Source: Acidimicrobiia bacterium
GTDB lineage: Bacteria; Actinomycetota; Acidimicrobiia; Spongiisociales; ZC4RG35
Length of the DNA: 64,000 bases
Assembly: GCA_036525795.1 (NCBI GenBank)
Contig: DATCZS010000123.1
Span: 10,717 to 74,716 of the forward strand
Direction: 5' to 3'
In this document: positions 5,409 through 17,650 of the stretch, in pieces
Layout of the letters: each line of letters opens with the position of its first letter
Position numbering within the stretch: position 1 is the stretch's first letter
Made by a program: the position numbers and the translations under genes
Notes under the pieces: generated by a model
Told to the model about the DNA's origin: nothing
The model's database searches: none
What the model saw: only the letters and a program-made list of their open reading frames with translations

Positions 5409-5984
5409 TCAGCGGGAGGCGGCGATGTCGAGCAACTGGAGGATGCCCTCTCGCCCGATCTCACCGGCAAGGCGCCCGGACACGACGCCATCGGAACCGA
5501 CCACCGCCCAGAACGGGAAGGACGTCACGCCATAGGCAGCGGCGGCGCTGTTCCGCTGGTCGTCGAAGATCAGCGGCGAACTCCATCCCTCGCGCTCCAG
5601 CCAGGCCCCCGGCGGGTAGTTGACCTGGGTCTCATTGGTGGAGGTCGCCACACCCACCACCCTGAGGTCCTGCGGCACCAGCCCTTCGTCGACGATCGCC
5701 TGCAGGACCGGGACCTCGTTGCGGCAATGGGAGCACCAGTGCGCCAGAAACACCAGCACGGTCGGCCCCTGGCCGGGCGTGAAGGTGTAGTCGTCGCCCT
5801 GGATCGACGGCGCCGGCATCCCGACCGCACCATCGGACCCGGCTTCGTATGCCGGCAGCGGGTCGCCGACGACGCCGACGGTTCCGAACGCCGTGCGGTT
5901 CGAGGTATCGCCGTCCGATCCTCCTCCACCTGCCAGCACGAGGGCGACCGCCACCACCGCCAACCCCACGACTCCCAACCACAT
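5409..5984 (-). CDS. TlpA/ResA-like thiol:disulfide oxidoreductase, membrane-anchored
   Basis: Thioredoxin-fold WCSHC active site and an N-terminal transmembrane helix. The tool ORF was trimmed to MWLGVVGLAVV. Confidence 0.7.
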   Translation of the reverse strand: MWLGVVGLAVVAVALVLAGGGGSDGDTSNRTAFGTVGVVGDPLPAYEAGSDGAVGMPAPSIQGDDYTFTPGQGPTVLVFLAHWCSHCRNEVPVLQAIVDEGLVPQDLRVVGVATSTNETQVNYPPGAWLEREGWSSPLIFDDQRNSAAAAYGVTSFPFWAVVGSDGVVSGRLAGEIGREGILQLLDIAASR

Positions 5985-5992
5985 CCAGTTCT

Positions 5993-6514
5993 TCACGGCT
6001 GCACCTCTTGGGTATCCAGCGCGGCCGCCAGCCACGCGAACGCCAGTATCGCCAGGAACCCGGCGAGCGCCATGAACGGGATCGTGACGAACCCGAACTC
6101 CTCCACATAGCGCACCGAGCAGGGGATGCCGAGGACGCACGCCCCGATGTCGACAGGCGTCCACTGTTCGATCAGGTGGATGATGCTGATCGTCGCTCCG
6201 ACTCCCGCCAGCGACGCCGCGTACCGAAACGCGCGGCCGTCTGCGAACACGATCGCCAGTCCGAAGACCAGCACCAACGGATACATGGCGATCCGCTGAT
6301 ACCAGCACAGGACGCACGGTTCCATGTTGTAGACCTCGGAATAGCCCAGGCTGCCCAGCGTCGAGGCGAGCGCAACCGCCAGTCCGCCGGAGAGGGCCAT
6401 GCGAACCGTGAACCCGCCTGCCAGGCGCCGGCGAAACACCACGACGACGAACGCCCCGGCCAGCGCCATCAGCGCCAACAGGGACGTGAAACGGGCGTAG
6501 GAAGCTGCACTCAT
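5993..6514 (-). CDS. Disulfide bond formation protein B (DsbB/BdbC family)
   Basis: Four-TM protein with CVLCWYQR and a second Cys pair (GACVLGIPC). The ORF was trimmed to MSAASYARF. It lies immediately upstream of the thioredoxin gene. Confidence 0.65.
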   Translation of the reverse strand: MSAASYARFTSLLALMALAGAFVVVVFRRRLAGGFTVRMALSGGLAVALASTLGSLGYSEVYNMEPCVLCWYQRIAMYPLVLVFGLAIVFADGRAFRYAASLAGVGATISIIHLIEQWTPVDIGACVLGIPCSVRYVEEFGFVTIPFMALAGFLAILAFAWLAAALDTQEVQP

Positions 6515-6530
6515 CGGTTCATCTCGGACA

Positions 6531-6580
6531 TCGGCAGCCCCGACCAGGTTCGAACCGACGTTTCCGGCTTGAAAGGCCGG
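6531..6580 (-). repeat. 50-nt direct repeat equal to the 3' half of tRNA-Glu (anticodon stem through CCA region). It has no 5' half, so it reads as a partial tRNA copy or att-like scar.
   Basis: 6531-6580 matches 8380-8429 at 48 of 50 positions. The upstream sequence cannot supply acceptor or D arms. Confidence 0.75.
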
Positions 6581-6816
6581 AGCAGGCCCGATCCAGACAT
6601 TCTGACCATGAGGGAGAACTCTAAACCGGCCTCGTAGACCCGATTCATTCCGCTCAGTCGTGGACACGGATTCGAGCGATGTTCAGACCTCACACGGCCC
6701 GGACCGCCAAACAAACCCGTTCCGACCGCCGCTCCGAAACAGCCATGGACACTGCCGCCACCCTCCGTGGTTCGCCGAGATCCGCGAACGCACGCGGACG
6801 GCTACGAGGTGGACAG

Positions 6817-8196
6817 TCAGCGGTCTACGGCGTAGACGCGCCACGACCCTGGCACGCCCCGCAGCTCGTGCTCGCCCCGGTCCACGAACGACACGCCCGA
6901 CCCGGCGCTGATGTCCCGCACCGAGCCCGACACCAGGATCTCCCCCGCTCCCGCCATCCCGGCGATCCGCGCCCCGATGTGCACCGCCAACCCGGCGATG
7001 TCGTCGCCAACCAACTCGACCTCGCCCGTGTGAACCCCCGCCCGCACCTCCAGCCCGTGGCGAACCGCCTCGTCGATGATCGCCTCCGCGCACCGGATCG
7101 CCCGCCCAGGCCCGTCGAACCGGGCGAGGAACCCGTCACCCGCCGACCCGACCTCGATCCCACGGTGGGCAGCGATCTCGCGTCTGGCGGCCGCATGGTG
7201 GGTTTCCAGCAGACCGCGCCACGCGGCGTCACCCATCCGGGCCGCCCGATCGGTCGAGCCCACGAGGTCGGTGAACAGCACGGTGGCCAGCACCCGCTCC
7301 GCCTCGGGCTCCATCCGTTCACCGGTGAGGAACTCCCGAATGTCGGGGACCACGGCCTCGGGCTTCATCCAGGCCAGGTGCTCGGTCCCCGACCGTTCGA
7401 CCAACCGGCCCCCGGGAATGTGCTCGGCGAGGTACCGGCCGCTCTCGATCGGCACCACCCGGTCACCGATGCAGTGGAGGACGAGCGCCGGGACGCGGAT
7501 ACTCGGAAGGACCGACCGGACGTCGATCTCACGGGACGCGAGCTGCCATGCGAGAGCCTCTCGGGGACTGGCGGCGTTGCGGAGCAGACGCGAGAGGTGC
7601 TCGGTCGCCCACGCCGGGTCGTCCAAATCCTCGCCGAAGAGGCCGATCGCCCACCCTTCGGACGCCGAGCCCCAGCGGTCCTTGAAGCTGGCGAGGTACT
7701 CCTCGAACCATTCGTCGTCGCCATCGCCCCAGGGCCATTCTTCGTCGGACCGCTCGCGGACTTCGGCGCCCTGGAGCACGAGATGGGTGACCCGCTCGGG
7801 GTGGGCGGCGGCGAAGAGCATCGAGAGCGGCCCACCCTCCGACTCGCCCATGACGGCAGCCCGCTCGATGCCGGCGTGGTCGAGGACGGCGCGGATGTCG
7901 TCCATGCGTGTCTCGAGCGGGGTGCCCGGGGTGCCACGCGACGAAAGACCCATGCCGCGCTTGTCGTAGACGATGAGCCGGCAGAACTCCCCCAGCGCCT
8001 CGGAGAAGCGACGGAAGAGCGGAAATGCCCAGTTGACGTCGAGATGGCTGACATACCCGAGGGTCCAGATGAGCGGGATGTCGCCCTCACCCGTGATCGT
8101 GTAGGCGATGTCGGCCTCATCGGCGGGCGCGTAGTGGATCTCGGGCATGGAGTCAGGGTACCCATTCGTCGCGATCGTCCTCATTGGTCGGTCCAC
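6817..8196 (-). CDS. Alpha/beta-hydrolase fused to a class III adenylate/guanylate cyclase catalytic domain (LipJ/Rv1900c-like)
   Basis: The N-terminal half is an alpha/beta hydrolase fold. The C-terminal half has cyclase-homology-domain motifs (VLFTDLVGST, GDGFLARF, RAGVHTGEVE). Confidence 0.8.
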   Translation of the reverse strand: MDRPMRTIATNGYPDSMPEIHYAPADEADIAYTITGEGDIPLIWTLGYVSHLDVNWAFPLFRRFSEALGEFCRLIVYDKRGMGLSSRGTPGTPLETRMDDIRAVLDHAGIERAAVMGESEGGPLSMLFAAAHPERVTHLVLQGAEVRERSDEEWPWGDGDDEWFEEYLASFKDRWGSASEGWAIGLFGEDLDDPAWATEHLSRLLRNAASPREALAWQLASREIDVRSVLPSIRVPALVLHCIGDRVVPIESGRYLAEHIPGGRLVERSGTEHLAWMKPEAVVPDIREFLTGERMEPEAERVLATVLFTDLVGSTDRAARMGDAAWRGLLETHHAAARREIAAHRGIEVGSAGDGFLARFDGPGRAIRCAEAIIDEAVRHGLEVRAGVHTGEVELVGDDIAGLAVHIGARIAGMAGAGEILVSGSVRDISAGSGVSFVDRGEHELRGVPGSWRVYAVDR

Positions 8197-8381
8197 TGGA
8201 TCTGCTTCTGCGGGCGGTTCGACGCCGCCTCATCGGATGCGTATGTCCGCGGAAGGAGAGACCAAACTCGGGGGCACCGCCAACCCGCGGCCAGCCGCCC
8301 AAAGCGGCCCGGCCGGGCGAATCCGGGGAATCGACGGAACGCAGGTCCGTGAAGCGCCCACCACAGCAGGCGATGTGAATC

Positions 8382-8456
8382 GGCAGCCCCGACCAGGTTC
8401 GAACTGGCGTTTCCGGCTTGAAAGGCCGGCGTCCTAGACCACTGGACGACGGGGCC
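8382..8456 (-). tRNA. tRNA-Glu (anticodon UUC)
   Basis: Hand-folded cloverleaf. Acceptor GGCCCCG/CGGGGCU, D arm GUCC..GGAC, anticodon stem CCGGC/GCCGG with loop CUUUCAA, T arm GCCAG-UUCGAAC-CUGGU, discriminator G, and CC encoded. Confidence 0.85.
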
Positions 8457-8464
8457 AGGTTGTA

Positions 8465-8482
8465 CGGGGGTCCGCCCCCGGG
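8465..8482 (-). terminator. GC-rich hairpin between gltX and tRNA-Glu, a candidate factor-independent terminator
   Basis: cgggggtccgcccccg forms a 6-bp G/C stem. There is no U-tract, which is common in high-GC actinobacteria. Confidence 0.3.
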
Positions 8483-8564
8483 ACAAGAGGCTAATCGGGC
8501 GGCAGGAGTGCCTCGACGCACCGGCGCTGCCGCGAACCCCGGTTCCGGTCGGTGACCTCCGAGG

Positions 8565-9986
8565 TCAGTCGAATCGCCGGCGGGCGGATCGGATCCGCTC
8601 CAGCGTACGGTCGGGGCCGAGAACGGCGATCGACTCGAACAGCGGCGGGCTGACCGTGGATCCGGTCACCGCCACCCGCACCGGCTGCAACCCCTTGCGG
8701 GCTCCGATCTGGAGTTGCTCGAGCATCGACCGCAGCGCCTGTTCCACCGACTCGTGATCGAAGGCCTCGAGCGCATCGAGCTTCTCGGCCGCCACGTCGA
8801 GCACCGCTCCCACCCCGTCGGCGGTCATCACCTTCTCCCACGACTCCTCCTCGATGGCGAGATCGTCCGTGTAGAGAAACGCCACCTGGGAGGGCACCTC
8901 GGTCAGCACCTTCGTCCGCTCCTGGACGAGAGGGGCGATGCGCTCGAACGTCGCCCGCTGGCCCTCGTCGGGAGGGTGGCCCAGCCCGGCGGCGAGGAAC
9001 GGCATCGCCTGTTCGATGAAGACGGCGGGCGGCATCGCCCGCAGATACTCGCCGTTCATCCACTGGAGCTTGTCCTCGTCGAAGATCGCCGGGTTCTTCG
9101 AGACCTTGTCGAGGTCGAACGCTCCAATCGCCTCGTCGACGGTGAAGATCGTGCGGTCCTCTCCCGGAGACCAGCCCAGCAGGGCGAGCGCGTTGAAGAT
9201 GGCGTCCCGGAGGTATCCCGCATCGATGTAGTGCCGCAACGAGGTATCGCCGTGGCGCTTCGACAGCTTCTTGCCGTCCGGGCCGAACAACAGCGGAAGG
9301 TGGGCGTAGACCGCCGGATCGGCGCCCATCGCCCGGGCGAGCAGGATGTGCTTGGGCGTCGACGACAGCAGGTCCTCGCCCCGCACCACGTGGGTGATGC
9401 CGTAGTCGACGTCGTCGACGGTGGACGCCAGGTGGTAGGTGGGCGTTCCGTCCGAGCGCAGGATCACGAAGTCGTCGACGCTGTCGGCCTCGAACCGCAT
9501 GTCGTCGCGAACCACATCGTGGAACTCGATGGCCTCATCTGCGGGGACCGCCATCCGAATGACCCCCGAGTCGGCCTCTTCTTCGAGACGGCGGATGTAG
9601 AAGCCGGGATGACGACCCTCCTTCTGCGCCTTGGTCCGCAACTCCTCGAGCAGCTCGGCGGGACGGTCGTCGTAGTAGGCGGCGCCCGACTCCACCAGGG
9701 ACTGTGCGACCTGGCGGTACCGCTCGAAACGATCCGACTGCCGGTACGTCCCGTGGGGACCGCCGACCTCCACCCCCTCGTCCCAGTCCAGCCCGAGCCA
9801 GCGGAGCGAGCCGAGGATGTCCTCCTCGAACCGGGCTTCGGACCGCTCGGTGTCGGTGTCGTCGATCCGAACGATGAAGGTGCCGCCGTGGTGGCGGGCG
9901 AAGAGCCAGTTGAACAGCGCCGAGCGGGCCGTGCCCACGTGCAGGAATCCGGTGGGCGACGGGGCGATGCGGACCCGCACGGTCAT
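8565..9986 (-). CDS. gltX: Glutamyl-tRNA synthetase
   Basis: Class I aaRS HIGH-like PSPTGFLHVGT and KLSKR (KMSKS) motifs. The ORF was trimmed to MTVRVRIAPSPTG. Its ATG overlaps the upstream gene's stop as ATGA. Confidence 0.9.
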   Translation of the reverse strand: MTVRVRIAPSPTGFLHVGTARSALFNWLFARHHGGTFIVRIDDTDTERSEARFEEDILGSLRWLGLDWDEGVEVGGPHGTYRQSDRFERYRQVAQSLVESGAAYYDDRPAELLEELRTKAQKEGRHPGFYIRRLEEEADSGVIRMAVPADEAIEFHDVVRDDMRFEADSVDDFVILRSDGTPTYHLASTVDDVDYGITHVVRGEDLLSSTPKHILLARAMGADPAVYAHLPLLFGPDGKKLSKRHGDTSLRHYIDAGYLRDAIFNALALLGWSPGEDRTIFTVDEAIGAFDLDKVSKNPAIFDEDKLQWMNGEYLRAMPPAVFIEQAMPFLAAGLGHPPDEGQRATFERIAPLVQERTKVLTEVPSQVAFLYTDDLAIEEESWEKVMTADGVGAVLDVAAEKLDALEAFDHESVEQALRSMLEQLQIGARKGLQPVRVAVTGSTVSPPLFESIAVLGPDRTLERIRSARRRFD

Positions 9987-10750
9987 GCCCGCGTGCCCAC
10001 GGCGTGGTTGGCCAGCACACCGATCCCGTCGATCTCCACCTCGACCAGATCCCCGGCGGTGATCGGGCCCACCCCCGATGGGGTGCCCGTGAGGATCACA
10101 TCTCCCGGAAGCAGCGTCATCACCGACGAGATGAACTCGAGCGACTCTGCCACCCCGAACACCATCTCGGAGGTGAAGCCGGCCTGGCGTATCTCGCCGT
10201 TCACCCTGCACATCACCGCCATCTTCTCCAGCGGGTCGAACTCGGTCTCGATGGCCGGACCGAGCGGGCAGAACGTGTCGAACCCCTTCGCCCGGGTCAG
10301 ATCGCGATCCTGGCGCTGCAGGTCACGGGCGGTCACGTCGTTGGCCGCCGTATAGCCGAGGATGTACTGCGACGCGTCCTCTGCGGCCACGTTCCGTGCG
10401 ATCTTGCCGACGACCACGGCCAACTCGGCCTCGTGATGCACTTCGCGGGACTGTGGAGGGAGGACGATGCGGGCGTCGGGACCGATCACGCTCGTCGCCG
10501 GCTTCAGGAAGATCTGGGGCTCCTCGGCGACCTCGCCCCCCATCTCGTCCGCGTGGTCGACGTAGTTGCGGCCCAGACACACCAGTTTGGAGGGAAGAAC
10601 CGGCGAGAGCAGCTGGACCCGTTCCCACGGAATCATCGTCTCGGTGGCCTCCCAGGCGAAGAAGGGGCTTCCGTGGTAGAGGGTGACACCCCCCCCTTCG
10701 GCCAGTCCGTAGGCAATGTCGTCGTCTGTGCGGAATCGAACGATCTTCAT
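9983..10750 (-). CDS. Fumarylacetoacetate hydrolase (FAH) family protein
   Basis: FAH-family fold of 255 aa with C-terminal ...GDVILTGTPSGVGP. Confidence 0.75.
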   Translation of the reverse strand: MKIVRFRTDDDIAYGLAEGGGVTLYHGSPFFAWEATETMIPWERVQLLSPVLPSKLVCLGRNYVDHADEMGGEVAEEPQIFLKPATSVIGPDARIVLPPQSREVHHEAELAVVVGKIARNVAAEDASQYILGYTAANDVTARDLQRQDRDLTRAKGFDTFCPLGPAIETEFDPLEKMAVMCRVNGEIRQAGFTSEMVFGVAESLEFISSVMTLLPGDVILTGTPSGVGPITAGDLVEVEIDGIGVLANHAVGTRA

Positions 10751-11353: not shown

Positions 11354-11833
11354 TCATCCACCCAGTGCCAGCGTCACCAGCGCACCGGCCGCCAGCCCGT
11401 AGCCGCCCGCCACGAGATCGTCGGCCGTGATGCCCACGCCGCCGCCGAGCCGTTCCGCCGCGGCCACACCGGGAAATGCCGATTTGAAGATGTCCGCAGC
11501 CCGGAACACGGCCCACGCCACCAGGGCCGCCGGGACTCCCAGACCGATCGTCGCCACGAAGGTCCCGGCCGCCTCGTCGACGACCACCCAGCCGGGGTCA
11601 CCTTCCTTGCCTCCCTCCCGGGCCGGGTCGGAGGCAAAGGGCGAGCTGGCCCACACCGAGACGATCCCCACGACGACCGCCGCCGCCAGCTGCGCCCCCC
11701 ATCCGAGCCGACCGAGAAGAAGCGCCATCCCGAGCGCGAGGACCGACCCGACGGTGCCGGACCCCATGTCGGAGCCACGCCACCGCCGCAGGAGCAAACC
11801 TGTCCCGAACCACGAGGCGATGAGGCGGCGCAT
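11354..11833 (-). CDS. pgpA: Phosphatidylglycerophosphatase A
   Basis: PgpA-like membrane protein (DPGWVVVDE motif, about 159 aa). Confidence 0.7.
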   Translation of the reverse strand: MRRLIASWFGTGLLLRRWRGSDMGSGTVGSVLALGMALLLGRLGWGAQLAAAVVVGIVSVWASSPFASDPAREGGKEGDPGWVVVDEAAGTFVATIGLGVPAALVAWAVFRAADIFKSAFPGVAAAERLGGGVGITADDLVAGGYGLAAGALVTLALGG

Positions 11834-16754: not shown

Positions 16755-17650
16755 CGTACTCCGAGCGGGACGGCGAACCGATCGCCCGCGCCCCTGACTC
16801 CGACTCCATCGGCGACCGACTCGACGCCGTCAGCCGGCCCCTGGCAGAGCGCGTGCTCAAACGCGCCATCGAACTCCACCACGACGATGTCCACGGTCCC
16901 GATCGGATCGCACGCACCACCCTCGACGAGATCGCATCCGAACTGGGAGTGGCGCCGGAGTACGTCAGACGGGCCCTCGCCGACGAACTCGAGACCACGC
17001 GTCACCCACCTCGCTCGATCCGGGAGCGGATGCTCGCCCCGGTCCGGGTCACCGGCGGGCGCGTCGTCACGCTCGACGCCGCCGAGACCCGGGCGTCGAT
17101 CGTGGCGTGGATGGGCGGCCAGGAGGGTCTGCGGCCCAGGGCCCGGGTGGGAGATGGCGTGCGGTGGGAAAGAGACCGCCACTGGACGACCAAGCTCCGG
17201 ATCGGCATCGGACGATCAGACGCCACCGGGGGGCTGCGAACCATCCCGACGGTGACCCACCGCCAGACCGAGATCTCCGGGTCCGAGCAACTCGTCGAAC
17301 TCGATGCGGACACTCGCATCATCTCCCAGGTGGCGGCAGGGATCGGCGGCGGCCTCACGGGCGCCGGGGCGCTCGGCGGCATCATCACCGCGGCGGCGAT
17401 GTCCGGCGGATCCGACCTCCTCCAGTTCCTGATCCCCTTCGCCCCCGCTGCAGCGGTGGGCGTCGGCACCGCCGTCATCGTCGCCAAGTCGTGGCTGGCG
17501 GCAGTCCGAAAAGGCATCGCCCGCGCACTCGACGGCATCGCCAACCCGACCATCCACGAGGCTCGCAGACGGCGCCCCTCCGACCGCCGGAGCGGGTTCT
17601 CCCGGGTCCTCCAGGACATCGCAGACGCCCTCGACGACCTCGGCCGCTGA
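16751..17650 (+). CDS. Hypothetical protein with a Gly-rich hydrophobic C-terminal region
   Basis: Starts at an ATG that overlaps the upstream stop (ATGA). About 299 aa; residues about 200-260 are hydrophobic and Gly-rich. Confidence 0.4.
   Translation: MTYSERDGEPIARAPDSDSIGDRLDAVSRPLAERVLKRAIELHHDDVHGPDRIARTTLDEIASELGVAPEYVRRALADELETTRHPPRSIRERMLAPVRVTGGRVVTLDAAETRASIVAWMGGQEGLRPRARVGDGVRWERDRHWTTKLRIGIGRSDATGGLRTIPTVTHRQTEISGSEQLVELDADTRIISQVAAGIGGGLTGAGALGGIITAAAMSGGSDLLQFLIPFAPAAAVGVGTAVIVAKSWLAAVRKGIARALDGIANPTIHEARRRRPSDRRSGFSRVLQDIADALDDLGR

Follow-up and report, generated by a model that had tools for sequence, protein, structure and literature searches.

A single-gene islet without an integrase at tRNA-Glu(UUC) of an Acidimicrobiia bacterium, probably the remnant of an integrative element

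Elements that integrate into tRNA genes are known from the actinobacteria, pSAM2, SLP1 and mycobacteriophage L5 among them. The mark that such integration leaves, a regenerated tRNA gene with a displaced fragment of the same gene, is reportedly set out in Reiter et al. 1989 and Williams 2002, the second of which is also said to define an anticodon-loop sublocation class. The original work on cis-mobilizable elements (CIMEs) is said to have been done in Streptococcus thermophilus. Regenerated tDNA plus a displaced fragment is the signature used by Islander (Hudson, Lau & Williams 2015, PMC4383910), and CIMEs are remnants of ICEs or IMEs that have lost their integration and transfer genes and kept the attachment (att) sites attL and attR (ICEberg 2.0, PMC6323972). 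Our study followed up one locus in a stretch of 64 000 nucleotides, here called the window (contig DATCZS010000123.1, positions 10 717 to 74 716, of assembly GCA_036525795.1), from an Acidimicrobiia bacterium, nearly all of whose close relatives are metagenome-assembled genomes. At this locus an intact tRNA-Glu(UUC) gene, which contains copy B of a direct repeat, and a displaced tRNA 3' fragment, copy A, bracket an insert of 1798 bp (6581-8378, minus strand) that holds a single gene, for a LipJ-like hydrolase-cyclase.

We read the insert as the remnant of an integrative element that entered tRNA-Glu by tyrosine-integrase-type recombination and lost its integrase by deletion, and we give this reading a probability of roughly 75 %. 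As in the islands that Islander collects, the window holds an intact tRNA gene with a direct-orientation fragment of the same tRNA on its 3' side, and the identity block begins in the anticodon stem and stops just beyond the 3' terminus, restoring the tRNA; likewise the site has empty alleles, is a hypervariable hot spot and has a cognate integrase beside the tRNA in relatives L021, L013, L006 and L014. Unlike those islands, the insert is just 1.8 kb long with one gene, and it has no integrase, so that it would fail Islander's integrase filter; every other Islander feature is found at the locus. Like CIMEs, the insert keeps attL and attR, has neither a recombinase nor transfer genes and nothing but cargo, and occupies a site that integrase-bearing elements use in relatives. 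Unlike CIMEs, its repeat has begun to diverge (at 2 of 51 positions) and its host belongs to the uncultured Acidimicrobiia rather than to the firmicutes. In structure the locus fits the definition of a CIME, and integrases of the cognate type, by which an ICE or IME would mobilize it through accretion, were seen only in relatives. The process behind it is known and the case, though clean, is an ordinary one, an islet at a tRNA gene without an integrase; the points of mild note are the minimal size of the remnant and a cargo that is native to the lineage and repeatedly relocated.

A direct-repeat search placed the two copies at 6530-6580 and 8379-8429 (51 nt, 49 of 51 positions identical, spacing 1849), which agrees with the 48 of 50 matches given in the original prediction for 6531-6580 and 8380-8429. 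By blastn-short, the second copy was matched at E 7e-20 and no third copy was found anywhere in the 64 kb. The sole tRNA that ARAGORN called in the window is tRNA-Glu(UUC) at 8382-8456 on the minus strand (63.7 bits against Rfam RF00005), the regenerated target gene on the attL side; its sequence is identical to that of the tRNA in L001-L003 and its T arm is the same as in L171 and L172. Copy B (8379-8429, minus strand) is the att identity block within this functional tRNA and spans tRNA positions 28-75 plus 3 nt; it takes in the anticodon stem-loop in full, the variable loop, the T arm and the 3' strand of the acceptor stem, with 3 nt beyond. The earlier description of copy B as the 3' portion of an intact tRNA-Glu(UUC) was right, except that the block begins at position 28 and takes in the entire anticodon arm, rather than beginning at the 3' strand of the anticodon stem. 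Copy A (6530-6580, minus strand) is the displaced 3' fragment and the attR core. As had been proposed, it is not a second tRNA: ARAGORN called no tRNA there, the Rfam score was 16.6 bits (E 7.4) against a threshold of 29, and the 70 nt 5' of it bear no likeness to tRNA positions 1-27 (score 13 vs 11.8 +/- 2.2 in shuffles). The anticodon arm is identical in the two copies, and both mismatches (6556/8405 and 6558/8407) fall in the 5' strand of the T stem, where copy A shows C50>U and A52>G. Because all related tRNAs having the same T-loop keep GCCAG/CUGGU as in copy B, copy A is the one that drifted and is decaying. Both of its changes keep wobble pairing, which we regard as a coincidence.

The insertion is delimited by comparison with relatives in which the site is empty. 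The best gltX (glutamyl-tRNA synthetase) identity among species-representative genomes was 68 %, and a larger protein collection yielded relatives at 98, 92, 90 and 86 %. The contigs of the closest relative (L170, 98 %) and of L173 (92 %) end 8 nt and 88 nt after gltX, respectively, and are uninformative on the insert. The nearest relatives with usable contigs, L172 and L171, both have tRNA-Glu followed by dsbB after 18-20 nt, the empty site that the original prediction had proposed looking for. In L171 (gltX 86 % at the amino acid level; NCBI GCA_975970885.1) the order is FAH-gltX-tRNA-Glu-18 nt-dsbB-redoxin-rpiB-murA-spoIID-NifU, and in L172 (gltX 90 %) gltX and tRNA-Glu are followed by ~20 nt and then the ATG of dsbB, whose product begins MSAASY. 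By blastn, L171 and the window are collinear from the FAH gene to base 8380 of the window and again from base 6580 through dsbB and the redoxin gene, and bases 2483-2532 of L171 align to both repeat copies. A four-way alignment identified attL with the left half and attR with the right half of the empty site. The insert is present in the window and missing from L171 and L172, whose attB is uninterrupted. dsbB also lies directly after the tRNA in the more distant L015 and, less tightly, in L043; L002, L004 and L012 are without dsbB, and rpiB follows the tRNA. The synonymous divergence (dS) of gltX between the window and the empty-site relatives L172 and L171 is 0.63-0.67. On one unconstrained lineage, two changes in 51 nt amount to a pairwise divergence of about 0.08, with wide error, and because copy A has diverged by only this much, the data are consistent with an insertion that postdates the split from L172 and L171, in agreement with the empty sites themselves. 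Islets without an integrase, which finders that require one, such as Islander, filter out, can thus be placed with single-nucleotide precision where relatives with an empty site are at hand.

The same site holds active-looking elements in other Acidimicrobiia. L021 carries an island of 5.6 kb between tRNA-Glu and dsbB, with a perfect 47-nt repeat of tRNA positions 28-74 that begins at the same base as the repeat in the window and whose distal copy lies directly before dsbB. An open reading frame (ORF) of the Phage_integrase family (1.8e-20) adjoins the tRNA's 3' end, on the opposite strand, and homologs of this integrase lie beside the tRNA in L013 (93 %), L006 (90 %) and L014 (56 %). With the empty sites, this island of the same repeat geometry bears out the attL/attR reading of the repeat pair first proposed from the window alone. 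The integrase ORFs at L021:11470-12747, L013:11475-12683 and L006:11917-13125 read through the att core and end inside the tRNA antisense; the C-terminus of the integrase must therefore change on integration. Integration that alters the C-terminus of the integrase is reportedly known for IntP of Mx8. L018 retains an integrase pseudogene beside tRNA-Glu, consisting only of residues 309-408 (the last ~100 codons) of the L021 type, and at L018:11677-13108 this pseudogene is followed by a second, different and intact Phage_integrase ORF on the other strand, which suggests successive or nested integrations at the hot spot. Degenerate partial copies of tRNA-Glu lie 46-82 nt after the intact tRNA at L008:11604-11655 and L010:8216-8280. 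They start at the 3' strand of the D-stem, continue to the 3' end and have changed anticodon loops, and so resemble near-empty att scars or hybrid att sites; L010 also has four copies of GGGGCTGCTCACTGTTKGT. In other relatives the interval after tRNA-Glu is empty, holds dsbB and the redoxin gene alone or carries unrelated cargo, including LtrA, a Na/H exchanger, a CMD-family protein, an MBL-fold hydrolase and an ABC ATPase. Because the intervals of relatives hold integrases, an integrase pseudogene, a serine recombinase (L011, described below), varied cargo and partial tRNA copies, the tRNA-Glu site is an integration hot spot, whose lineages show all stages from intact element to bare scar. 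The series documented here comprises the empty site, the integrase-bearing island, the integrase pseudogene, the single-gene islet without an integrase and the near-empty scar, and it makes this a well-documented case of tRNA hot-spot evolution in a poorly known, uncultured actinobacterial class.

L011 differs from these relatives in the type of its recombinase. At L011:11453-12988 it has a large serine recombinase of 499 amino acids (Resolvase, Recombinase and Zn_ribbon_recom domains) on the opposite strand, the 3' end of which overlaps the tRNA-Glu(UUC) gene. A serine-integrase element at the 3' end of a tRNA gene would be noteworthy against the statement in the Islander paper that only integrases of the tyrosine family are known to target tRNA genes (PMC4383910).

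Neither the insert nor the 64-kb window contained a match to the L021 integrase (tblastn) or to a hidden Markov model of four integrases searched against all six frames (best E 0.18). The only ORF of the insert with family matches is the hydrolase-cyclase, and there is no tyrosine integrase in the interval. The earlier claim of an absent integrase is thus borne out in the insert and, as regards the tested integrase family, across the window. The lone tblastn match of the L021 integrase in the window consisted of the tRNA antisense plus 'AAQSGP', a stretch that corresponds to a DNA motif. This motif, TTTGGGCCGC...TGGGCCGC, occurs ~55 nt past the tRNA in the L021, L013 and L006 elements, and L021 has two further copies of TTTGGGCCGC 136-147 nt before its distal repeat. 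Allowing one mismatch at most, TTTGGGCCGC has three matches in the 21.4-kb L021 locus (11652-11661 and 17032-17052); because all three lie at the island ends, within 150 nt, and on one strand, they are likely to be arm-type integrase-binding sites and we treat them as candidates for such. In the window, TTTGGGCGGC at 8294-8303, at a distance of 79 nt from the tRNA, is oriented as the motif is in L021, and TCGATTCCC precedes it, as in L021. Local alignment of the tRNA-proximal flank with the L021 arm, one of six arms compared, scored 28 against 17.8 +/- 2.9 for shuffles, with 3 of 500 shuffles reaching 28. TTTGGGCCGC has seven matches in the window vs 4.3 expected, one of the seven being in the flank (8229-8378). 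These similarities give a weak hint that the tRNA-proximal 150 nt may descend from an integrase-proximal arm of the L021 type.

The cargo gene (6817-8148, minus strand) is intact and encodes 443 amino acids with an alpha/beta-hydrolase domain (Pfam Abhydrolase_1, 2.8e-20) and a class III nucleotide cyclase domain (Guanylate_cyc, 2.6e-9). It had been placed at 6817-8196, and its end at 6817 stands; the most likely start, as in most close homologs, is the ATG at 8148. The label 'LipJ-like hydrolase-cyclase' is fair, as the protein aligns end to end with the NCBIfam LipJ model NF058673 (residues 2-441 to 8-449 of 449) and its cyclase domain matches PDB 1YBT, the LipJ cyclase domain, at E 5.5e-48. 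It shares the two-domain architecture of LipJ (Rv1900c) of Mycobacterium tuberculosis, but its 376 bits compare with an equivalog cut-off of 800, and judged by sequence it is a relative of LipJ and not an ortholog or equivalog. The gene is under purifying selection, with a ratio of nonsynonymous to synonymous divergence of ~0.11 against the copies in L081 and L087. Its GC content at third codon positions, a comparison proposed in the original prediction, is 0.88 and lies inside the window range of 0.79-0.92; this value is typical of the window, so composition is uninformative as to whether the cargo is foreign, and composition was also uniform across the junctions of the insert.

Homologs of the cargo gene occupy two kinds of context. 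In L194, L088, L085 and L086 (93, 89, 87 and 79 % amino acid identity) a convergent SpoU-type methylase gene overlaps the 3' end, with DUF3179 beyond it where the contig reaches that far, and this order of cyclase, SpoU and DUF3179 is probably the ancestral locus. The L081-L084 copy (97 % amino acid, 95 % nucleotide identity) lies between an APH-family kinase gene and a convergent DUF4440 gene, and the L087 copy (96 and 93 %) follows a TetR gene truncated past its helix-turn-helix. The window, L081 and L087 copies have in common only a leader of ~70-80 nt, the ORF and 1-17 nt after the stop, a unit of ~1.42 kb (window 6802-8228; L081:9929-11335; L087:109-1535). In the window the leader occupies 8149-8228 (minus strand), with 93-95 % identity to L081 and L087, and moves with the gene; it is absent from the SpoU-linked copies. 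The ~15-17 nt past the stop in the window (6802-6816) and in L087 still resemble the SpoU 3' end. Cargo dS is 0.15-0.19 against L081 and L087 and 0.72-0.88 against L088, L085 and L086, and gltX dS is 0.10 to the 98 % relative and 0.38 to the 92 % relative. The first cargo range lies between these two gltX values, and the second is similar to the gltX dS to the empty-site relatives (0.63-0.67). The gene tree is thus compatible with the organismal tree, and it is the location that differs. The cargo is a gene native to the lineage, captured and relocated rather than foreign, and the ~1.42-kb single-gene unit has been relocated repeatedly. The cargo retained in an island can in this way be a lineage's own gene, relocated rather than imported.

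The L087 context recalls that of the window. At L087:1521-1625, 16 nt after the cargo stop codon, lies a tRNA-Val(CAC)-like fragment, which starts in the anticodon arm and reaches the 3' end; in its acceptor strand 9 of 9 bases equal those of the L152 tRNA-Val, a strong 13-bp hairpin follows the fragment and ARAGORN called no complete tRNA there. This fragment is probably the distal end of another tRNA-integrated element, and the cargo gene is the last before a displaced tRNA fragment in two of the three relocated contexts. In L081 the cargo is 4.7 kb from a tRNA-Asn, of which no fragment repeat was found, and the adjacent ORF of 367 amino acids has no Pfam match and no recognizable integrase domain. 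An integron gene cassette was considered for the shared unit and rejected: the leader has no attC-like hairpin, its folding being not consistently stronger than that of shuffles (z 0.6, 0.0 and -2.0 in the window, L081 and L087), the 3' sharing is 1-17 nt and there is no integrase. Scanning metagenome contigs with the cargo protein revealed no close contexts, only homologs of at most 54 % identity and L156, which was set aside as it shares just a 408-bp internal gene fragment and looks chimeric. Searches of IMG/VR viral contigs with the cargo and with a junction sequence from the tRNA side (attL) matched nothing, and the L021-type integrase had only relatives of 30-37 % identity, save one 60-residue fragment at 55 %.

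Under the favoured reading, the attP of the element would have borne a copy of tRNA-Glu from the first base of the anticodon stem (position 28) to 3 nt past the 3' end, and its predicted form is ...GGATCGGGCCTGCT, the 51-nt core and TCACATCGCCTGC.... Recombination with the chromosomal tRNA (attB) would have rebuilt a functional tRNA from element DNA, giving copy B, and displaced the original 3' part to the far end of the insert beside dsbB, giving copy A. Deletions would then have removed the integrase and nearly all else, leaving arm sequence of ~150 nt and ~220 nt and one expressed cargo gene, the LipJ-like hydrolase-cyclase, presumably copied from a resident gene and captured together with a new leader of ~75 nt and a 3' flank of ~17 nt. 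The restored empty site is predicted to be tRNA positions 1-75 followed by GATGTCCGAGATGAACCGATG. We infer that a tyrosine integrase made this particular insertion and that the element once had the integrase and lost it by deletion; the order of cargo capture and integrase loss is likewise a matter of interpretation, and the cyclase unit may be either the original cargo or a later replacement of the interior.

Several observations weigh against this history. The insert has no recognizable integrase pseudogene, and the only trace of one is the short motif similarity, with its 3 of 500 shuffles uncorrected for six comparisons. The flanks (6581-6816 and 8229-8378) gave only noise by tblastx and blastn against the 12 collected islands, none of which points to a parent element. 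The sharp boundaries that the cargo unit keeps in three contexts suit a discrete mobile unit equally well as repeated decay, and the integrase search covers 64 kb of the genome, which leaves room for an integrase in trans. These points bear on the alternative that the insert never had an integrase and was a minimal, non-autonomous, CIME-like element, integrated in trans or moved by accretion through a tRNA-Glu-specific integrase from elsewhere in the cell or from a co-resident element, and perhaps still mobilizable. In keeping with such an origin, attL and attR are nearly intact, with identical anticodon arms (the presumed crossover region), the tRNA-proximal flank has a TTTGGGCCGC-like motif oriented as the candidate arm sites of L021, cognate integrases are present in the clade, and the unit from -75 to +17 has the same boundaries wherever it was relocated, in L087 16 nt from the tRNA-Val(CAC) 3' fragment. 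However, the insert and its flanks were found together nowhere else, an idle site is suggested by the two substitutions in copy A, the motif counts for little (7 matches in the window vs 4.3 expected), L018 shows plain decay of an integrase at the site, and the cargo gene and the attL junction sequence searched are absent from IMG/VR. The original prediction had offered a heavily decayed island or a different way of acquiring genes at tRNA sites. Because of the L018 pseudogene at the site and the weak arm trace in the tRNA-proximal flank, we favour the decayed island and consider integration in trans possible but unlikely. Less likely still, the insert would be a minimal cassette in working order, one gene between two att arms, inserted and removed in trans by tRNA-specific integrases encoded elsewhere, with the LipJ-like unit shuffled between att-flanked shells at different tRNAs (tRNA-Glu here, tRNA-Val in L087); we hold this doubtful, and if true it would amount to an integron-like system of gene exchange built on tRNA att sites.

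Two explanations dispense with an integrative element. The window sequence could be an assembly or binning artefact, a contig misjoined through repeated tRNA sequence, given that the genome is probably from an uncultured organism, that its close relatives are nearly all metagenome-assembled and that tRNA sequences are classic sites of such errors; yet both sides of the insert are collinear with the one L171 contig, a misjoin would not yield a displaced fragment diverged at two positions, and composition does not change across the junctions, which makes an artefact very improbable. Slightly less probable again is that tRNA-Glu was duplicated in tandem long ago, that the 5' half of the distal copy disappeared and that the cyclase gene was inserted later. 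It would account for two tRNA-derived sequences in direct orientation, and ~40 nt 5' of copy A, at about 6626-6640, there is a 15-nt match (13 of 15) to tRNA positions 17-31; this candidate for an older tRNA fragment inside the insert was rejected as chance level, as 56 of 269 real window segments score as high. The original prediction had linked such a duplication to there being no empty-site allele, but the two nearest relatives that are informative, and more distant ones too, have an empty site, copy A lacks a 5' half, the region 5' of it being without significant similarity to tRNA 1-27, and the repeat begins precisely where the anticodon stem does, at its first base, just as the repeat of the L021 island with its integrase does.

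The genes around the insert are all on the minus strand and keep the order FAH-family hydrolase (9983-10750), gltX (8565-9986), tRNA-Glu, cargo, copy A, dsbB (5993-6514) and redoxin (5409-5996), beyond which lie rpiB on the plus strand and then murA and spoIID. The gltX assignment rests on Pfam and on the synteny fah-gltX-tRNA-Glu in relatives, in which gltX is the conserved upstream neighbour of the tRNA. The dsbB-type disulfide oxidoreductase gene, which natively neighbours the tRNA, begins at 6514 with 18 nt separating it from the copy A end, and its product matches Pfam DsbB (2e-11) and NCBIfam PRK03113 (1.9e-32) and has 74 % amino acid identity to DsbB of L171. The redoxin or TlpA-like thiol-disulfide protein gene (Pfam AhpC-TSA and Redoxin) forms an operon with dsbB, in the same order as in L171. 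Of the two insert flanks (both minus strand), the tRNA-proximal one is unique sequence, and the distal one contains the SpoU-like 6802-6816 and a terminator-like hairpin at 6717-6742, not above chance expectation, and is otherwise unique.

The insert may also have consequences for dsbB. In the empty-site genomes the 18-20 nt between the tRNA and dsbB leave no room for a promoter, so dsbB and the redoxin gene are probably co-transcribed with tRNA-Glu. The window (8490-8500, minus strand), L172 (1805-1815) and L171 (2415-2425) share a conserved block, CCGATTA(C/G)CCT, ~35 nt upstream of the tRNA, which is a candidate -10 element of the TANNNT type. The insert puts 1.85 kb between the tRNA promoter and dsbB, with one gene in the same orientation and one terminator-like hairpin; when 5900-8700 was scanned for promoters and terminators, this hairpin was the only candidate of either kind. 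Copy A does lie in the region upstream of dsbB, as had been noted, but it is simply the sequence native to that place. Rewired dsbB expression after the insertion is nonetheless plausible: dsbB and the redoxin gene are split from the tRNA promoter that they most likely needed, and a signalling enzyme (a cAMP/cGMP cyclase fused to a hydrolase) now lies in the path of that transcription. TACCCT, the same hexamer as in the block upstream of the tRNA, also occurs 6 nt before the cargo ATG (8157-8162), and a leaderless cargo transcript would fit.

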